DNA of 64,000 nucleotides from Candidatus Latescibacterota bacterium (GTDB lineage: Bacteria; Latescibacterota; UBA2968). Below, one piece after another: positions 51,629 to 55,308 of this stretch (position 1 is the first letter of the stretch; the number at the start of each line of letters is the position of its first letter). The notes beneath the pieces were generated by a model that saw nothing but the letters and a program-made list of their open reading frames with translations, ran no database searches and was not told the DNA's origin. A program made the translations under genes and the position numbers. The DNA lies in the NCBI GenBank assembly GCA_965208125.1, contig OZ242320.1, positions 1,408,001-1,472,000 on the forward strand, written 5' to 3'.

Positions 51629-53137
51629 CTATTGAATTTTCGCCCAATCGGGCATCACCCCGAGTTCAATACCCAGCACAACGCGACCAACAACAGCAAT
51701 CGCAGCAGTAATCATCACAGCCCCAACCAAATTCAACCCCACGCCCACACGCGCCATATCGCGCATAGAAATTCTATCCGTACCAAATACAATCGCATTG
51801 GGTGGCGTGGCTACCGGCAACATAAACGCACAAGAACACGACAACGTAGCTGGAATCATCAGCAACAATGGATTGAGACCCACAGCCACAGACAACGCCG
51901 CCAAAACCGGAAGAAACATCTCCGCCGTTGCCGTATTGGAAGTCAACTCAGTCAAAAAAGTCATCATCACACACAAACCACCGACCAAAAATAGAGGATG
52001 CAAGCGCCCCATATCCTCCAACTGCTGCGCGCACCAGAGCGACAACCCCGACTCTTTAAAACCACTTGCCAGAGCAAATCCACCGCCAATCAGCAACACA
52101 ATATGCCAGGGTACGTTGCCAGCCGTTTGCCAATCCATCACCCTGGACCTCGCGCCATCTCGCGCGGGCACGACAAACAAAATCAGAGCCATTGCCATAG
52201 CAACCGACCCATCGGTTATCAATCCGCCAGATTCGAAAAACTGAGACCAGCCCGGCAGCGTCCAATCGCCAATTTGAATGGGGCGTCTCGACAACCACAA
52301 CAGCGCCAACAACACAAAATCGGCCAGCACGACCTTCTCGGCAAACGACATCGGCCCCAACTCGGTATATTGCGTTCGCACCACACTCAGATCAATATCA
52401 TCGCCGCGACCGCGAATGCCAAAAACGAGGCAAAGCGCACCCCACGCACAAACGAGCATCACGCATGCCAGAGGCAGAGCAAAAGCAAACCACGTCGCAA
52501 ACGAAATCTCGGGAACCTCTGAAAAATGAATGGATAAAATCCTCACAAAAGACAAATTGGTCGGCGTGCCCACAAGCGTTGCGCTCCCACCAATTGAAGC
52601 CGCATAAGCCACCCCCAGAAACACCGCCGTGCCAAAAGAACTATTGGCCACACCCTGCTCTTCCATTCTAACCACAATTGCAAGTGCAATCGGCACCATC
52701 ATCATCGTTGTCGCCGTATTGGAAATCCACATGGACAAAAACGCCGTCACCAGCATAAATCCCGTCAGAATACACCGGGGACACCCCCCAAAAAGAAGCA
52801 GCAAGCGAAGGGCAATTCGCCGGTGTAAATTCCAGCGCTGCATGCCCAATGCCACCATAAAACCACCGACAAACAAAAAGATAATGTGATTCAAATAAAG
52901 TGGCGCAACCTCTTGCCCGCTCATAATACCCAGCAGGGGAAACAACACCACGGGCAACAGTGCCGTCGCAGCCAAAGGCACGGCCTCTGTCATCCACCAA
53001 ATCGCCATCCAGCAGGCCACACCTGCCGTATGTGTCACCTCGGGATGTCCCGGCTTGAGATCTCCAAAGACTGTGACTCCCACCCCAATCACAGGACCGA
53101 GCCACAGCCCCCAGCGTTCTATTTTTTTATTTAGCAT
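51629..53137 (-). CDS. SLC13/DASS sodium-coupled anion symporter
   Basis: WW.TEAVP, SMWISNTATT, GTPTN, TELTSNTAT, AFMLPVATPPNA. Confidence 0.95.
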   Translation of the reverse strand: MLNKKIERWGLWLGPVIGVGVTVFGDLKPGHPEVTHTAGVACWMAIWWMTEAVPLAATALLPVVLFPLLGIMSGQEVAPLYLNHIIFLFVGGFMVALGMQRWNLHRRIALRLLLLFGGCPRCILTGFMLVTAFLSMWISNTATTMMMVPIALAIVVRMEEQGVANSSFGTAVFLGVAYAASIGGSATLVGTPTNLSFVRILSIHFSEVPEISFATWFAFALPLACVMLVCAWGALCLVFGIRGRGDDIDLSVVRTQYTELGPMSFAEKVVLADFVLLALLWLSRRPIQIGDWTLPGWSQFFESGGLITDGSVAMAMALILFVVPARDGARSRVMDWQTAGNVPWHIVLLIGGGFALASGFKESGLSLWCAQQLEDMGRLHPLFLVGGLCVMMTFLTELTSNTATAEMFLPVLAALSVAVGLNPLLLMIPATLSCSCAFMLPVATPPNAIVFGTDRISMRDMARVGVGLNLVGAVMITAAIAVVGRVVLGIELGVMPDWAKIQ

Positions 53138-53235
53138 ATCTTCTCCATGATTACATCTTTGTAGAGATTCAACAATATACACCATAACACAAAAAGACAA
53201 AACTCGTTTGAGCCAACAAAAAATCACGCCTTTCG

Positions 53236-53341
53236 GGAACCTTTCCAGCCTTTAAAAGTAAAAGAATATGCGACAAAGCGTGTCGCAAAAATATCGGCGT
53301 TGACTCCTATACCCCGGCTGAGTCAACGCCGTTACTTGTTT
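53236..53341 (+). ncRNA. Candidate sRNA unit 1 (ECF-like promoter plus two hairpins)
   Basis: GGAAC-N16-AGTAAA; hairpins 53269-53287 and 53295-53331 (12-bp perfect stem, loop CUAUACCCCGGCU); U-rich tail. Confidence 0.45.
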
Positions 53342-53344
53342 CTT

Positions 53345-53436
53345 GGAACTCTTTACCGTACAAATGCGTCTAATTCGGTACCATGCAACATCCCTTGAGG
53401 CGTTGGTTATACCCTCCCAACCAGCGCCTCTTTTTT
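53345..53436 (+). ncRNA. Candidate sRNA unit 2 (ECF promoter plus hairpin with AUACCCUCCC loop)
   Basis: GGAAC-N17-CGTCTAA; 12-bp stem 53397-53430; U6. Confidence 0.6.
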
Positions 53437-53446
53437 ATTTATAAAC

Positions 53447-53538
53447 AAAAAAAGCCTTTGAGGGCTCCCTCCCGACACCCTCAAAGGTTTGTAATTCTGC
53501 TACCGAAGCAAAATAAATTCCCAAAATAACCCTGTCAA
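53447..53538 (-). ncRNA. Candidate sRNA unit 3 (sigma70 promoter plus hairpin with UGUCGGGAGGGAG loop)
   Basis: TTGACA-N17-TATTTT (53538-53510); stem 53455-53487; U7. Confidence 0.6.
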
Positions 53539-53539
53539 C

Positions 53540-53651
53540 AAAAAAAGCGGGCTGCCAACAGCGCTCTATTTATCGGGAGGGAGGAAATAAACAGAATTGC
53601 TGGGGCAACCCGCTGTGCATAAAACATACCCAACTTCAAAAACAACGTCAA
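53540..53651 (-). ncRNA. Candidate sRNA unit 4 (sigma70 promoter plus long hairpin with UUCCUCCCUCCCG loop)
   Basis: TTGACG-N17-TATGTT (53651-53623); rod hairpin 53546-53614; U7. Confidence 0.62.
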
Positions 53652-53816
53652 GAGTATAGACGAAAATTATTACTTAAGCAGCGTTTGAATATCAAAAACC
53701 GTTGTCCGCTGCTAAAAAAGGTACGCGCCGATCTGCCCCGTCTTTTCCGTTGCTTTTCTCGCGTAAACGAATAATTTATCACATCGTCCCTGAAACCTAT
53801 TGCGAAAGGTCCTCTT

Positions 53817-54044
53817 ATGTTTTTCCTGGCAAACCTCCTCACAATTTACGGCTACATCATCATTGCGCGAGCACTCATCTCATGGATAAATCCCAATCCA
53901 TACAATCCACTCATCAGAATAATATGCGCCATCACAGACCCGGTACTCGTACCCCTTCGCCGTCTGTTGCCCGACCTGGGTGGGCTGGACATCTCGCCCT
54001 TTGTCGCCCTCGTCATTATCTGGTTTATCATATCCCTGATTTAG
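53817..54044 (+). CDS. yggT: YggT family membrane protein
   Basis: RALISWINPNPYNP...ITDPVL.PLRR.LP..GGLDISP. Confidence 0.93.
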   Translation: MFFLANLLTIYGYIIIARALISWINPNPYNPLIRIICAITDPVLVPLRRLLPDLGGLDISPFVALVIIWFIISLI

Positions 54045-54072
54045 TCTCTCTCTCACAGAAATCGAGGCAGGG

Positions 54073-55308
54073 ATGCCTCTCCTACCTACAAAAGGGCATA
54101 ATTTGAGCGCAGAACCACATCCACCCACCTCTCGCATCCTCATTCCCATCTTGCTAACCGGCCTGTCTGGCTTGCCCCCCTTATCCATTGACATGTTTTT
54201 GCCCTCAATGCCGGCAATGGTTGAGGAGTTCCAAACCCATCCCACCCACATACAGCCCGCCGTCACCTTCTTCTTAATAGCACTGGGCGCAGCACAACTC
54301 GTCTTTGGTCCCCTCTCTGACCGATTTGGTCGCCGCCCCATCTTGCTCATCGGCCTGGCCTGTTACGCCCTCGCGGGTCTGGGCTGCCTGTTTGCACCCA
54401 CAGTGGGCGCACTCATTTTGGCTCGTGTATTGCAGGGATTTGCCGGAGGCAGCGGCCCTTCTGTAAGCCGCGCTGTAGTACGCGACATATACGGCGAAAT
54501 CCACGCCGCCAGAATAATGTCCTACATGGCCACAGCCATTGCCCTCGCCCCCATACTCGCCCCCATAATAGGTGGATTCTTACAAACCTATTTTGGATGG
54601 CAAGCCGTCTTTGTCGTACTCAGTGCGCTGGGCACCATGTTCTTCTTCGGCTACCTCTGGGCAGTGTCTGAAACCAATAACATGATGGACCCCACAGCCC
54701 TGAATCCAACGCGCATGATAGCCAATTACCGCGATCTCCTGAGCAGCCGTCAGTACCTCGGATATACCTTTATGGTCGCCATCTTATTCTGGGGCATGTT
54801 TGCCTTTATCACAAACTCATCTTTTGTACTCATCACAGAACTGAGTGTCTCTCCCCAACTCTACGGCTTCTGTTTTGGATCGGTCGCCGTGGGACTCATG
54901 ATTGGCGCATTTTTATCTGGCCGTCTCAACAATCGCCTCGGCAGCGCACGCATCATTCAAATCGGTAGCCTGATCGCAGCGGGCGCGGGCCTGCTCTTGC
55001 TGGGACTCAAACTCGCGGGCGTATTTTCGGTCATCAGCATCATCGCCCCAATGTGTTTATTCACAATAGGCGGCGGTATGGTGCGCCCCCAGGCAATGGC
55101 TGGCGCAATCGTGCCCTATCCGGAAAAAGCCGGACTTGCCTCCGCCCTCATGGGATTTATACAAATGAGCACAGCGGGATTATTTGTCACCCTCTTCAGT
55201 CAGTTCTACAGCGCCTCATCCATCTCCATGGTCACAGCCATTGCCATCTCAGGCGTCATTGCCCTGCTCGTGCGCCGCACGCTATTGCCTTATGGAGCCA
55301 CACCATGA
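54073..55308 (+). CDS. Bcr/CflA family MFS efflux transporter
   Basis: SIDMFLPSMP, GPLSDRFGRRP, ARVLQG, RAVVRD, APIIGG. Start uncertain (possibly TTG 54103). Confidence 0.92.
   Translation: MPLLPTKGHNLSAEPHPPTSRILIPILLTGLSGLPPLSIDMFLPSMPAMVEEFQTHPTHIQPAVTFFLIALGAAQLVFGPLSDRFGRRPILLIGLACYALAGLGCLFAPTVGALILARVLQGFAGGSGPSVSRAVVRDIYGEIHAARIMSYMATAIALAPILAPIIGGFLQTYFGWQAVFVVLSALGTMFFFGYLWAVSETNNMMDPTALNPTRMIANYRDLLSSRQYLGYTFMVAILFWGMFAFITNSSFVLITELSVSPQLYGFCFGSVAVGLMIGAFLSGRLNNRLGSARIIQIGSLIAAGAGLLLLGLKLAGVFSVISIIAPMCLFTIGGGMVRPQAMAGAIVPYPEKAGLASALMGFIQMSTAGLFVTLFSQFYSASSISMVTAIAISGVIALLVRRTLLPYGATP

Follow-up and report, generated by a model that had tools for sequence, protein, structure and literature searches.

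Putative small RNA genes in two tandem pairs, with complementary C-rich and G-rich loops, in an intergenic spacer of a Candidatus Latescibacterota genome

Introduction

The enterobacterial small RNAs (sRNAs) MicA, RybB, and MicL are sigmaE-dependent, are read from GGAAC-N16/17-TC/CGT promoters and act as the repressive branch of a stress regulon. The consensus of ECF-sigma promoters has AAC in the -35 element and CGT in the -10 element, at a spacing of about 16-17 nt, and an ECF sigma gene is usually preceded by the motif that its product recognises. Another kind of system is described in the part of PMC8216469 available to us: the C-rich single-stranded regions of RoxS/RsaE, FsrA, and CsfG pair with ribosome-binding sites, and a separate RNA, the sponge RosA in B. 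subtilis or RsaI in S. aureus, pairs through G-rich regions with the C-rich sRNAs and neutralises them. That work presents its method with reference to species in which no RNA hub protein, for instance Hfq, is known. According to the accessible part of PMC6486639, the actinobacterial 6C sRNA binds multiple mRNA targets via C-rich hairpin loops, independently of RNA chaperones, and sX13 of Xanthomonas and the alphaproteobacterial CcsR/cuckoo, mmgR, and BjrC1505 appear in the accessible text of PMC3771888 and PMC8034643 as short sRNAs with C-rich loop motifs.

In this study, we analysed a 415-base intergenic spacer of an uncultured Candidatus Latescibacterota MAG (genome 96% complete), which lies in a stretch of 64,000 nucleotides, called the window below. 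To our knowledge, this phylum has no cultured member, and our literature search found no regulatory RNA described for it. The spacer probably holds four separate genes, arranged in two tandem pairs, whose RNAs are small, non-coding and trans-acting and belong to new families, as judged from sequence and conservation. Two of them, U2 and U4, are predicted to be short RNAs with C-rich hairpin loops like 6C, sX13, CcsR/cuckoo, mmgR, and BjrC1505, as far as the cited texts describe these. They differ from 6C, sX13, CcsR, mmgR, and BjrC1505 in phylum, in their promoters and in the presence of a complementary partner RNA. Promoters resembling the ECF type at U1, U2, and a further RNA, U5, recall MicA, RybB, and MicL; unlike in those RNAs, to which there is no homology, the putative seeds lie in loops and not at 5' ends.

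Results

Anatomy of the Spacer

The spacer is flanked by divergent genes for a DASS transporter and YggT and is tiled by four promoter/hairpin/U-tract units, which were named U1 and U2 (plus strand) and U3 and U4 (minus strand). Units and flanks alike were as a first, sequence-only reading of the DNA had described them (Table 1). That reading had seen no credible ORF, in agreement with an ORF scan in which the longest ORFs of the spacer had 32-48 aa. In U2, U3, and U4 a GC-rich hairpin is followed immediately by a tail of U6-U7, as in an intrinsic terminator. U1 has only a weak U-tract here, with the broken tail GUUACUUGUUUCUU, and likewise in the other species of the genus except G016, G001, G018, and G010; distant species have U8. 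The -35 box of U3 begins 2 nt past the U-tract of U4.

Table 1. Positions of the spacer features in the window (RNA lengths and ends are predictions).
Feature	Position	Strand	Description
DASS transporter gene	51629-53139	-	flanking gene
Spacer	53236-53651		four units
U1 promoter	53236..53263	+	ECF-type: GGAAC 53236-53240, N17, GTAAAA 53258-53263
U1 RNA	53266..53345	+	~80 nt; 5' hairpin 53269-53287; terminator hairpin 53295-53331, loop CUAUACCCCGGCU
U2 promoter	53345..53373	+	ECF-type: GGAAC 53345-53349, N17, CGTCTAA 53367-53373; abuts U1 tail
U2 RNA	53378..53437	+	~60 nt; terminator hairpin 53397-53430, loop AUACCCUCCC, core CCCUCCC, then U6
U2 5' block, single-stranded	53378-53394	+	GUACCAUGCAACAUCCC
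U3 promoter	53538..53510	-	sigma70-type: TTGACA 53538-53533, 17 nt, TATTTT 53515-53510; 10/12 consensus matches
U3 RNA	53504..53444	-	~60 nt; variable 5' part; terminator hairpin 53487-53455, loop UGUCGGGAGGGAG with GGAGG, then U7
U4 promoter	53651..53623	-	sigma70-type: TTGACG 53651-53646, 17 nt, TATGTT 53628-53623; 9/12 consensus matches
U4 RNA	53616..53538	-	~79 nt; long interrupted hairpin 53613-53547, then U7; apical stem UUUAUU/GAUAAA bears loop UCCUCCCUCCC, anti-SD-like CCUCC
M16 peptidase gene remnant	53672..53712	-	3' end with stop codon; spacer positions 531-568 align to end of relatives' 906-922 aa ORF
yggT	53817-54044	+	flanking gene

A consensus scan detected both sigma70-like sites, but its total of 3 sites, compared with 1.4 ± 1.1 in shuffled sequences, was not significant alone, so the case for more than chance rests on conservation and not on the scan. 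The scan was also blind to the unit terminators, since its rule admits loops of 3-8 nt only and the unit loops measure 10-13 nt. A BLAST search of the spacer against its own genome gave the self-match and otherwise matches of at most 52 nt (mostly 16-21 nt) at E >= 0.5; the spacer thus belongs to no repeat family, the high-copy case that the sequence-only reading had named as fatal to its proposal.

The Rfam search that it had suggested returned no family. The gathering-score scan of the whole window had no match, and in the E-value scan of 52900-54100 all matches (6 at E <= 10) were below threshold and at the level of chance. RsaE/RoxS (RF01820; 16.7 bits, E 7.5, against a gathering score of 79) was matched across U2 and antisense U3. 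On U4, BjrC1505 (RF02356; 18.3 bits, E 1, gathering score 50) and mmgR/suhB (RF00519; 13.7 bits, E 9.4, gathering score 41) aligned only with the CCUCCC loop and the terminator. 6C, sX13, and CcsR/cuckoo were not among the Rfam matches at E <= 10 over the same region.

Conservation and Arrangement in Relatives

The spacer is present in all 20 of the other species of the genus. BLAST of the 20 fetched loci located U1 in 19, U2 in 18, and U3 and U4 in 20 each; the misses were U1 and U2 in G005, where that half is on another contig, and U2 in G018. The DASS gene of G018 and G010 is only 77% identical and the RNA units are 78-85% identical, with loops at 100%. Covariance model R1 (U4) matched 19/19 genus genomes together with G024, G122, G119, G134, and G036, and model R3 (U1) matched 19/19 together with G122, G119, and G023. 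Weak matches outside families f1 and f2 were inspected in five cases for R1 (G035, G085, G123, G150, and G138) and one for R2 (G089), and all six were plain terminators without the loop. Beyond this inspected set, the weak matches were R1 in G081, G101, G106, G109, G118, and G120, R2 in G039, G040, G097, and G146, and R3 in G101 and G118.

The tandem U4->U3 recurs in G024, G036, G122, and G119, which represent three further genera and two families, with neighbours that are not the same across genera, and the tandem U1->U2 in G122 and G119, of another genus. G134 has U4 without U3. Upstream of U4, the context varies between genera, being a different ORF or a divergent gene. A sigma-factor cassette of 1.2-4.2 kb splits U1->U2 from U4->U3 in four of the 20 sister species, and in genus g9 the two pairs lie on different (short) contigs. 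The single four-sRNA array proposed at first thus stands as to its four units but not as one array; it is made up of two separable tandem pairs.

Between U4 and yggT, 17 of the 20 sister species carry an insert of 1.6-3.9 kb, which is an M16 peptidase gene where read (L031, L038, and L042; Pfam M16 and M16_C on L031:2526-5249). In L042, where the junction was read, the M16 stop codon stands 18 nt ahead of the -35 box of U4, and the coordinates of L031 agree, so that U4 probably terminates the M16 gene as well; relatives have no further terminator in between. By this comparison, the M16 gene is intact in most sister species and deleted in this genome, which has retained U4 and its promoter.

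These observations bear on a reading of the units as promoter debris and ordinary intrinsic terminators from genes that come and go at a hotspot (M16 peptidase, RpoS-like sigma cassette), functionless as RNAs. The position of U4 directly after the M16 stop codon and the varying gene content between the units suit it, yet U4 outlasts the M16 loss here and is found in different surroundings elsewhere among the genera, all four units come with conserved promoters of their own, and the weak matches inspected in other families proved to be plain terminators that lack the loop. We consider this reading improbable, also in view of the loops described next.

Folds and Covariation

The fold energies of U1, U2, U3, and U4 were -30.2, -22.1, -25.8, and -35.3 kcal/mol, with z-scores against 200 shuffles of -4.9, -3.9, -3.05, and -5.9 and with 0, 0, 2, and 0 equally good shuffles, respectively. 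Covariation, another check suggested by the sequence-only reading, supported all four structures. Compensatory changes were found at 9 of the 21 pairs of the U4 stem (equalled by 0/500 shuffles), 6 of 12 in U3 (covariation score equalled by 0/500, pair count by 19/500), 5 of 17 in U1 (2/500), and 3 of 12 in U2, where 100% of cells were paired (0/500). In all four units the consensus pairing occupied 94-100% of cells, compared with 23-79% when the partner was slid by 1-3 columns. Stem covariation does not discriminate here, because any conserved terminator would show it too, and to that extent it also suits terminator debris.

A terminator has no need of a conserved loop, and in the unit alignments conservation is higher in the loops than in the stems. 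In U3, the loop CGGGAGGGA is unchanged in 16/17 sequences, and CCCUCCC is invariant in 21 U4 and 18 U2 sequences; the C-rich loops are unpaired in MFE and consensus folds. The single-stranded 5' block of U2 is nearly unchanged in 17/18 aligned sequences. UAUACCC, earlier taken as an element common to U1 and U2, proved not to be conserved: the conserved cores are CCCCGGCU in the U1 loop and CCCUCCC in U2.

No alternative antiterminator fold was evident in the folds of the units. This argues against cis-acting leaders or attenuators, in which U4 and U3 on the minus strand would be conditional terminators governing read-through towards DASS or, in species that have it, the sigma cassette. U4, U3, the cassette (4 species), and DASS do share a strand; but such read-through must cross U2 and U1 antisense, the U4->U3 neighbours change between genera, and the sigma gene of G002 appears by eye to have its own promoter-like TTGACA box and AGGAGGAG SD, 45-100 nt downstream of U3. 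We therefore regard a cis-acting role as very improbable.

Hardly credible, too, is a role through small proteins or protein sequestration, for example a 30-aa hydrophobic ORF in U4 encoding a type I toxin-like peptide, or U3 as a CsrA-type GGA-loop decoy. The 32-48 aa ORFs overlap the units and the U3 loop has two GGA motifs, but stems and loops differ between species by indels of 1, 2, 4 or 6 nt, so that no reading frame is kept; the frames after the ATG of the U2 5' block differ between genera (compared by eye), and the first ATG of the U4 ORF falls within the -10 box. As for a protein partner, neither CsrA nor Hfq had a Pfam match in the 96%-complete genome.

Promoters and Sigma Factors

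In U1-U4, and also in U5, a stand-alone U4 paralogue elsewhere in the genome with an ECF-type promoter, the -35/-10 blocks stay unchanged and at a constant distance while the sequence between them diverges. The two minus-strand sigma70 promoters with 17-bp spacing noted at the outset were both recovered, and their spacing is conserved. TTGACA and TAnnnT at 17 nt precede U3 in all 21 genus sequences and in G024, G122, and G119, over unrelated spacers; G036 is the loosest fit of the 25 genomes, its -10 being readable as TATACA with a spacing of 16 nt or as ATACAT with one of 17 nt. For U4, CTTGAC and the -10 box are kept in 21/21 genus sequences, and the 17-nt spacing recurs over unrelated spacers in G024, G134, G036, G122, and G119.

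The two plus-strand ECF-type promoters of the sequence-only reading held in full for U2 (GGAAC-N17-CGTCTAA) and in part for U1, where GGAAC-N17 is present but the -10 of this genome reads AGT and not CGT. In 20 aligned genus sequences, and likewise in G122 and G119, which belong to another genus, GGAAC and (C)GT of U1 are kept over a variable spacer; the -10 reads CGTAAA or CGTATG in the distant species G016, G001, G018, and G010 and also in G019 and G006, and CGTTGA in genus g9. Of 19 aligned genus sequences, the window among them, 16 keep the U2 promoter, as do G122 and G119. G016 and G010 lack the GGAAC promoter, and in G010 the U2 hairpin lies directly 3' of the U1 terminator without a promoter of its own. 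The U5 promoter, GGGAAC-N16-GCGTTTAT, is invariant in 12/12. U2, U5, and U1 with its GGAAC-N17-(C)GTAAA thus agree with the ECF consensus (apart from AGT in U1 here), and the ECF assignment of the three is one of resemblance.

Genome-wide counts of GGAAC-N(12-22)-CGT showed no peak at N16/17. Ten intergenic GGAAC...CGT matches were listed, of which nine were read and the tenth was U2 itself. The genome has 24 sigma70-family matches above the ECF-model cut-off, about 8 of them of RpoD/RpoS-like size; a scan upstream of all 24 gave 3 loose promoter matches, and none of the 24 was linked to the U1, U2 or U5 promoters. The one match with the right motif and spacing, GGAAC-N17-CGTCCA at G000:C1:1223082, was read in detail, considered as an ECF autoregulatory promoter and taken as a chance match, since it overlaps the SD and ATG of that gene.

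The assembled contigs of four RNA libraries (X1, X2, X3, and X5; relatives mostly 90-95% identical) span the spacer and the flanking genes alike. These contigs carry no information on ends or strand and may include DNA carry-over, so that X1 record 1, which runs through all four units (53059-53613), is as compatible with read-through transcripts or carried-over DNA as with small RNAs.

Such a bridging contig would also be expected if U4-U3 and U1-U2 were each largely one two-hairpin transcript, giving two (or three) longer RNAs in which the complementary loops of U4-U3 kiss within the molecule, a compact structured RNA in place of a regulator and its decoy. The tight tandem of U4 and U3, kept across genera with the U3 -35 box 2 nt past the U4 U-tract, the weak U1 U-tract here and in most of the genus species, and the promoterless U2 hairpin of G010 agree with this. 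Against it stand the U3 hexamers, whose sequence and near-17-nt distance persist in the 25 genomes read although the spacers between them are unrelated, the GGAAC-N17-CGTCTAA of U2 in two genera, the strong end of U4 (hairpin and U7), the occurrence of U4 without U3 in G134, and U5 as a stand-alone U4-like RNA. We consider longer transcripts unlikely, though worth keeping in mind, and we retain four separately transcribed units as the probable arrangement.

Loop Complementarity and U5

Over 11 nt, the loops of U3 (UCGGGAGGGAG) and U4 (CUCCCUCCCGA) are exactly complementary. We judge this the strongest feature of the locus; it was absent from the sequence-only reading. The longest perfect U3/U4 loop complement reaches 10 nt or more in 23 of 25 genomes; G001 has 8 nt and G024 has 6 nt. 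The complementarity is conserved and not covarying: both loops are nearly invariant, and the one U3 loop change, in G024, is uncompensated.

When 1003 terminator-like hairpins of the genome were ranked as partners of the U3 loop, U4 took rank 1 at -24.7 kcal/mol, U5 rank 2 at -20.0 and U2 rank 8 at -16.2, with a mean of -5.8 and an sd of 3.2 over all hairpins. This loop-only ranking was used because full-length U3 duplex folding was uninformative: for U4, U2, U5, and U1, respectively, 40, 13, 185, and 121 of 300 mononucleotide shuffles were as good. First place among 1003 hairpins for the 11-nt match is a further point against terminator debris. U3 thus presents, as a sponge or decoy does, a G-rich stretch that is single-stranded and complements the seed of its putative partner sRNA. 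A hairpin-loop and T-tract filter passed 4 of the intergenic CCCTCCC sites (n = 67) and 2 of the GGGAGGG sites (n = 67); the survivors were U2, U4, and U5 (C-rich) and U3 (G-rich), plus one weak, messy fold per motif.

Candidate Targets

The 16S 3' end is the canonical CACCUCCUUUCU, and a 4-mer SD lies within 20 nt at ~45% of crude gene starts, which makes SD occlusion feasible. Targets were sought by folding loop duplexes against positions -35..+15 of 4262 crude gene starts and by 9-mer searches. The target prediction suggested earlier yielded a few candidates but no enrichment at starts, and the 9-mer complements of the U4 loop were mostly inside genes, with few at starts. Two examples are GGGAGGGUAUA, over the start of ORF G000:C1:605154-606563 (an 11-nt match to the U2 loop), and AUCGGGAGGGG, 15 nt ahead of ORF 3374327-3375412 (U4); without enrichment, both are leads only. 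RpoS/RpoD-like sigma paralogues were considered as targets and set aside, as their candidate starts had no consistent GGGAGGG-type SD.

Discussion

The undescribed multi-sRNA locus first proposed for this spacer is supported by the absence of an Rfam match and by loops and promoters conserved in the genus and beyond, the very points on which unconserved loops or promoters would have spoken against it. That U1-U4 and U5 are genuine functional RNA genes is, in our judgement, likely.

A mechanism can be outlined. U4, U2, and U5 would display a C-rich loop (core CCCUCCC; CCUCC in U4) mimicking the 16S anti-Shine-Dalgarno, which would pair with G-rich mRNA ribosome-binding sites and block translation. 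U3, with its GGAGG loop, would serve as a decoy or sponge, neutralising U4 through loop-to-loop pairing and, by less extensive pairing, U5 and U2 as well. U1 would bear a different seed, CCCCGGCU. Action of the C-rich loops on SD-like sites is about as likely as not, and pairing of U3 with U4 or U5 in the cell has about an even chance of occurring.

U1, U2, and U5 would be read from the GGAAC-N16/17-CGT promoters of ECF type, presumably upon an envelope or stress signal in view of that promoter type, and U3 and U4 from sigma70-type promoters, so that competition for U3 would couple the stress sigma regulon with the housekeeping regulon. As a tentative proposal, and one that may well be wrong, this would make a self-contained circuit, with the SD-mimic decoy U3 encoded beside the anti-SD-mimic U4 and common to three C-rich sRNAs under two sigma classes: once the ECF sigma is on, U2 and U5 would compete with U4 for the limited decoy, and the regulons would be linked purely by RNA-RNA titration at 10-11 nt kissing loops. 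Going further still, one may propose that the GGAGG loop of U3 might also bind the 16S anti-SD and tune the availability of 30S subunits.

If these proposals are true, the locus and U5 would add five new RNA families for the annotation of Latescibacterota MAGs and a second, independent origin of the design of C-rich sRNAs with a G-rich sponge known from Firmicutes. The ECF-type promoter instances could then help to assign a regulon to an orphan sigma factor of an uncultured organism. With the sponge beside its partner and one loop-loop contact, the system would be unusually simple for in vitro testing.

The closest comparison is with RosA and RoxS, as far as the part of PMC8216469 available to us describes them. 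Three C-rich RNAs (U2, U4, and U5) face one G-rich RNA, U3, which can be likened to RosA, and the setting resembles the species without a known hub protein addressed there, no Hfq having been found in this genome. Unlike RoxS/RsaE and RosA, to which there is no homology in sequence or structure, each RNA here would have one functional loop in place of two or three regions. The decoy U3, predicted at ~60 nt, is also shorter than RosA (~229 nt), and its gene, unlike that of RosA, lies immediately downstream of its best partner U4, with the perfect 11-nt loop-loop match. Unlike in the RoxS/RosA system, two of the C-rich RNAs (U2 and U5) have ECF-type promoters, in a system that is known here from its sequence.

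Anatomy of the DASS-yggT spacer

The spacer between the DASS-family transporter gene and yggT is 678 bp long, and no ORF in the interval 53236-53651 exceeds 48 aa, in line with the absence of a credible ORF in the sequence-only reading. The four predicted small-RNA units, U1 to U4, were as that reading had described them, correct to the base. Each consists of a promoter-like site, a stretch of 55-80 nt, a stable hairpin and a U-tract, in that order. The sigma70-type sites of U3 and U4 came from a consensus scan of the spacer, in which the site count alone does not exceed that of shuffles. In the window genome, the -10 of U1 reads AGT instead of CGT and its U-tract is broken, and U2 is without a promoter of its own in two other genomes (G016 and G010). 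The frames of small ORFs within the units are not conserved across species, given indels of 1, 2, 4 and 6 nt.

Coordinates of the features (window positions, or genome positions where prefixed by G000, the genome of the window's organism; L, fetched locus)
Feature	Position	Strand	Remark
DASS-family transporter gene	51629-53139	-	flanks spacer
Unit array U1-U4	53236-53651
U1		+	starts with GGAAC-N17-GTAAAA
U2		+	starts with GGAAC-N17-CGTCTAA
U3 and U4		-	TTGACA-17-TATTTT and TTGACG-17-TATGTT
M16 peptidase gene remnant	53672-53712	-	last ~40 nt and stop codon
yggT	53817-54044	+	flanks spacer
U5	G000:C1:4889429-4889512	+	R1 match; with promoter 4889379-4889512 (L064, L172)
L160 element	G000:C1:1544485-1544625	+	GGAACTTTTTTTCTGAAAAAACGTTGA
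Three 45-nt stretches	G000:C1:1361734, 1364384, 1368341	-
U2/U3 cassette, G002	L042:7201-11364
U2/U3 cassette, G013	L038:6472-7648

Conservation and structure of the units

The spacer is present in all 20 other species of the genus, with parts in four more genomes from the order. Exact-pattern matching of the U4 core against public genomes gave 14 records, all MAGs of uncultured Latescibacteria or Candidatus Latescibacterota. The whole region was taken from the 20 genus species for BLAST unit by unit; the misses were U1 and U2 in G005, where this half is split onto another contig, and U2 in G018. The RNA units of the most distant species are 78-85% identical, against 77% for the DASS gene, and their loops and promoter blocks are unchanged. 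Across the genus alignments the -35/-10 blocks are invariant at fixed spacing, with variable intervening spacers, and the loops are invariant while the stems vary. The loops and promoters of the sequence-only reading are conserved.

Structure and conservation of the units (z against 200 dinucleotide shuffles; R1-R3, covariance models, with genomes matched at E <= 0.01; rank as partner of the U3 loop among 1003 hairpins)
Unit	Fold (kcal/mol; z)	Pairs changed on both sides	Shuffles reaching this	Cells paired	BLAST loci	Model, genomes	Rank (kcal/mol)
U1	-30.2; -4.9	5/17	2/500	98.8%	19/20	R3, 25/151
U2	-22.1; -3.9	3/12	0/500	100%	18/20		8 (-16.2)
U3	-25.8; -3.05	6/12	19/500 (covariation score 0/500)	94.1%	20/20	R2, 28/151
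U4	-35.3; -5.9	9/21	0/500	97.1%	20/20	R1, 36/151	1 (-24.7)
U5							2 (-20.0)

The covariation check on orthologous spacers revealed compensatory pairs in every unit, and sliding the 3' partners by 1-3 columns lowered pairing to 23-79%. Because these alignments also supplied the folds, and their sequences share ancestry, the statistics support the folds and are not probabilities. Covariation by itself is what a conserved terminator would show as well.

The Rfam scan of the whole window at gathering scores gave no match to a known family. A permissive scan gave only matches at chance level, among them RsaE at 16.7 bits (gathering score 79), BjrC1505 at 18.3 (50) and mmgR at 13.7 (41). Membership of the hairpins in a high-copy repeat family was ruled out, as the spacer matches itself alone in the 5.75-Mb genome. 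A literature search found no description of regulatory RNAs in Latescibacterota.

Homologues beyond the genus

The models R1, R2 and R3 were each applied to a sample of 151 genomes of the phylum, and each matched all 19 genus genomes in it. Inspection identified true U4 homologues outside the genus in G024, G122, G119, G134 and G036, with U3 directly behind U4 in all of these except G134; the U3 copy of G036 was identified by eye alone and is absent from the R2 listing. U1 homologues were found in G122, G119 and G023, and U2 lies directly behind U1 in the first two. Among the weaker matches, which include 12 further ones in 11 genomes, the six that were inspected proved to be plain terminators that lack the loop. 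Stems in the other genera have diverged through many compensatory changes, and the promoter hexamers and spacing are retained, most loosely in the U3 promoter of G036. The loops are also retained (U4 CCUCCCUCCCGA, U3 CGGGAGGGAG, U1 CCCCGGCU, U2 CCCUCCC). The gene upstream of U4 varies among genera and is divergent in G134.

A fifth member and the putative ECF-type promoters

R1 matched a paralogue of U4, U5, in the window genome, and a second R1 match was present in 18 of the 19 genus genomes in the sample. U5 is a long U4-like hairpin with the loop UCCCCUCCCA and a U-tract, preceded by GGGAAC-N16-GCGTTTAT. U5 is conserved in all 12 genus genomes whose locus was fetched, and in these the promoter-like motif is invariant around a variable spacer. 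This putative promoter is a third, independent case of the ECF type. GGAAC...CGT is assigned to an ECF sigma factor on the strength of the AAC/CGT consensus. The motif showed no genome-wide enrichment, and its sole match at an ECF gene sits inside the start region of that gene.

A conserved TTGACA-N17-TTAATT site directly follows U5. In the L160 element, GGAACTTTTTTTCTGAAAAAACGTTGA precedes a strong hairpin and U7 by ~110 nt, with no ORF downstream; this could represent a further sRNA under an ECF-type promoter. The genome has 24 sigma-70-family matches above the ECF-model cut-off, a large repertoire for 5.7 Mb; about 8 of them are open frames of 294-346 aa with an RpoD/RpoS-like look.

Variable gene content around the units

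The interval between U4 and yggT is 1.6-3.9 kb in 17 of 20 genus species. In the three loci that were read (L031, L038 and L042), the insert is an intact ORF of 906-922 aa on the strand of U4, identified by Pfam as an M16 peptidase in L031; the L042 copy ends with its stop codon 18 nt ahead of the U4 -35 box. The window genome has kept U4 with its promoter although the M16 gene is reduced to its end; it carries a deletion of about 2.8 kb between yggT and U4.

G013, G012, G020 and G002 carry an insertion of 1.2-4.2 kb precisely at the U2/U3 convergence point, and in G005 the two halves of the array are on different contigs. The cassette begins with an RpoS/RpoD-like sigma gene in the two that were read (G002 and G013), and the sigma gene of G002 has its own TTGACA-like box and AGGAGGAG SD. 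Instead of a single array, the four units thus form two tandem pairs, located at a hotspot where genes are gained and lost.

The cassette sigma gene scored 225 bits with TIGR02394, under that model's cut-off. Four further ORFs follow it in G002, one with an FGE-sulfatase domain, and in G013 it is broken into ORFs of 135 and 158 aa, owing either to a frameshift or to faulty assembly.

Loop complementarity and proposed mechanism

The U3 loop 5'-UCGGGAGGGAG-3' and the U4 loop 5'-CUCCCUCCCGA-3' are exact reverse complements of each other. In 23 of 25 genomes the two RNAs share a perfect complement of 10 nt or more; its maximum length falls to 8 nt in G001 and to 6 nt in G024, in which the U3 loop carries one changed base. 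When the loops of 1003 terminator-like hairpins predicted genome-wide were ranked by pairing with the U3 loop (mean -5.8, sd 3.2), U4 and U5 came first and second. A scan for motifs inside a hairpin loop with a T-tract passed 4 of 67 intergenic CCCTCCC sites and 2 of 67 intergenic GGGAGGG sites; those passing were U2, U4, U5 and U3, together with a single weak fold for each motif. The U3/U4 loop complementarity is the key feature of the locus. It is added to the first reading, as are the two-pair architecture, the link with the M16 gene and sigma cassette, and U5.

Spacer and genes are covered alike by contigs of relatives (mostly at 90-95% identity) in four RNA libraries from as many studies (X1, X2, X3 and X5), and one contig bridges all four units. 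The X3 and X5 libraries, labelled as sponge and coral metagenomes, gave contigs 90-99% identical to the spacer and flanking genes; some of these relatives have the sigma cassette at the U2/U3 junction (loose ends at 53434-53449). The interpretation of the spacer as a predicted sRNA locus is supported by every comparative test available.

By analogy with established systems, the C-rich loops of U4, U2 and U5 would act as anti-SD mimics that bind G-rich ribosome-binding sites, and U3, as an SD mimic, would titrate these three. The 16S 3' end is canonical (CACCUCCUUUCU), and 1915 of 4262 genes, with crude starts, have a 4-mer SD within 20 nt. Target prediction for the loops yielded candidate leads and nothing beyond them. 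Three near-identical 45-nt stretches, antisense in three neighbouring ~1.8 kb ORFs that are probably tandem paralogous genes, surfaced in a GGGAGGGAG search. U3 could also be read as a CsrA decoy; neither CsrA nor Hfq has a Pfam match in the 96%-complete genome, which argues against this.

New families of predicted RNAs make up the locus, and they are of a functional kind already known. C-rich-loop sRNAs are known too from Actinobacteria (6C), Xanthomonas (sX13) and Alphaproteobacteria (CcsR). For the design of C-rich sRNAs with a G-rich titrator, the closest precedent is that of B. subtilis; RsaI plays the same part toward RsaE in S. aureus (PMC8216469).
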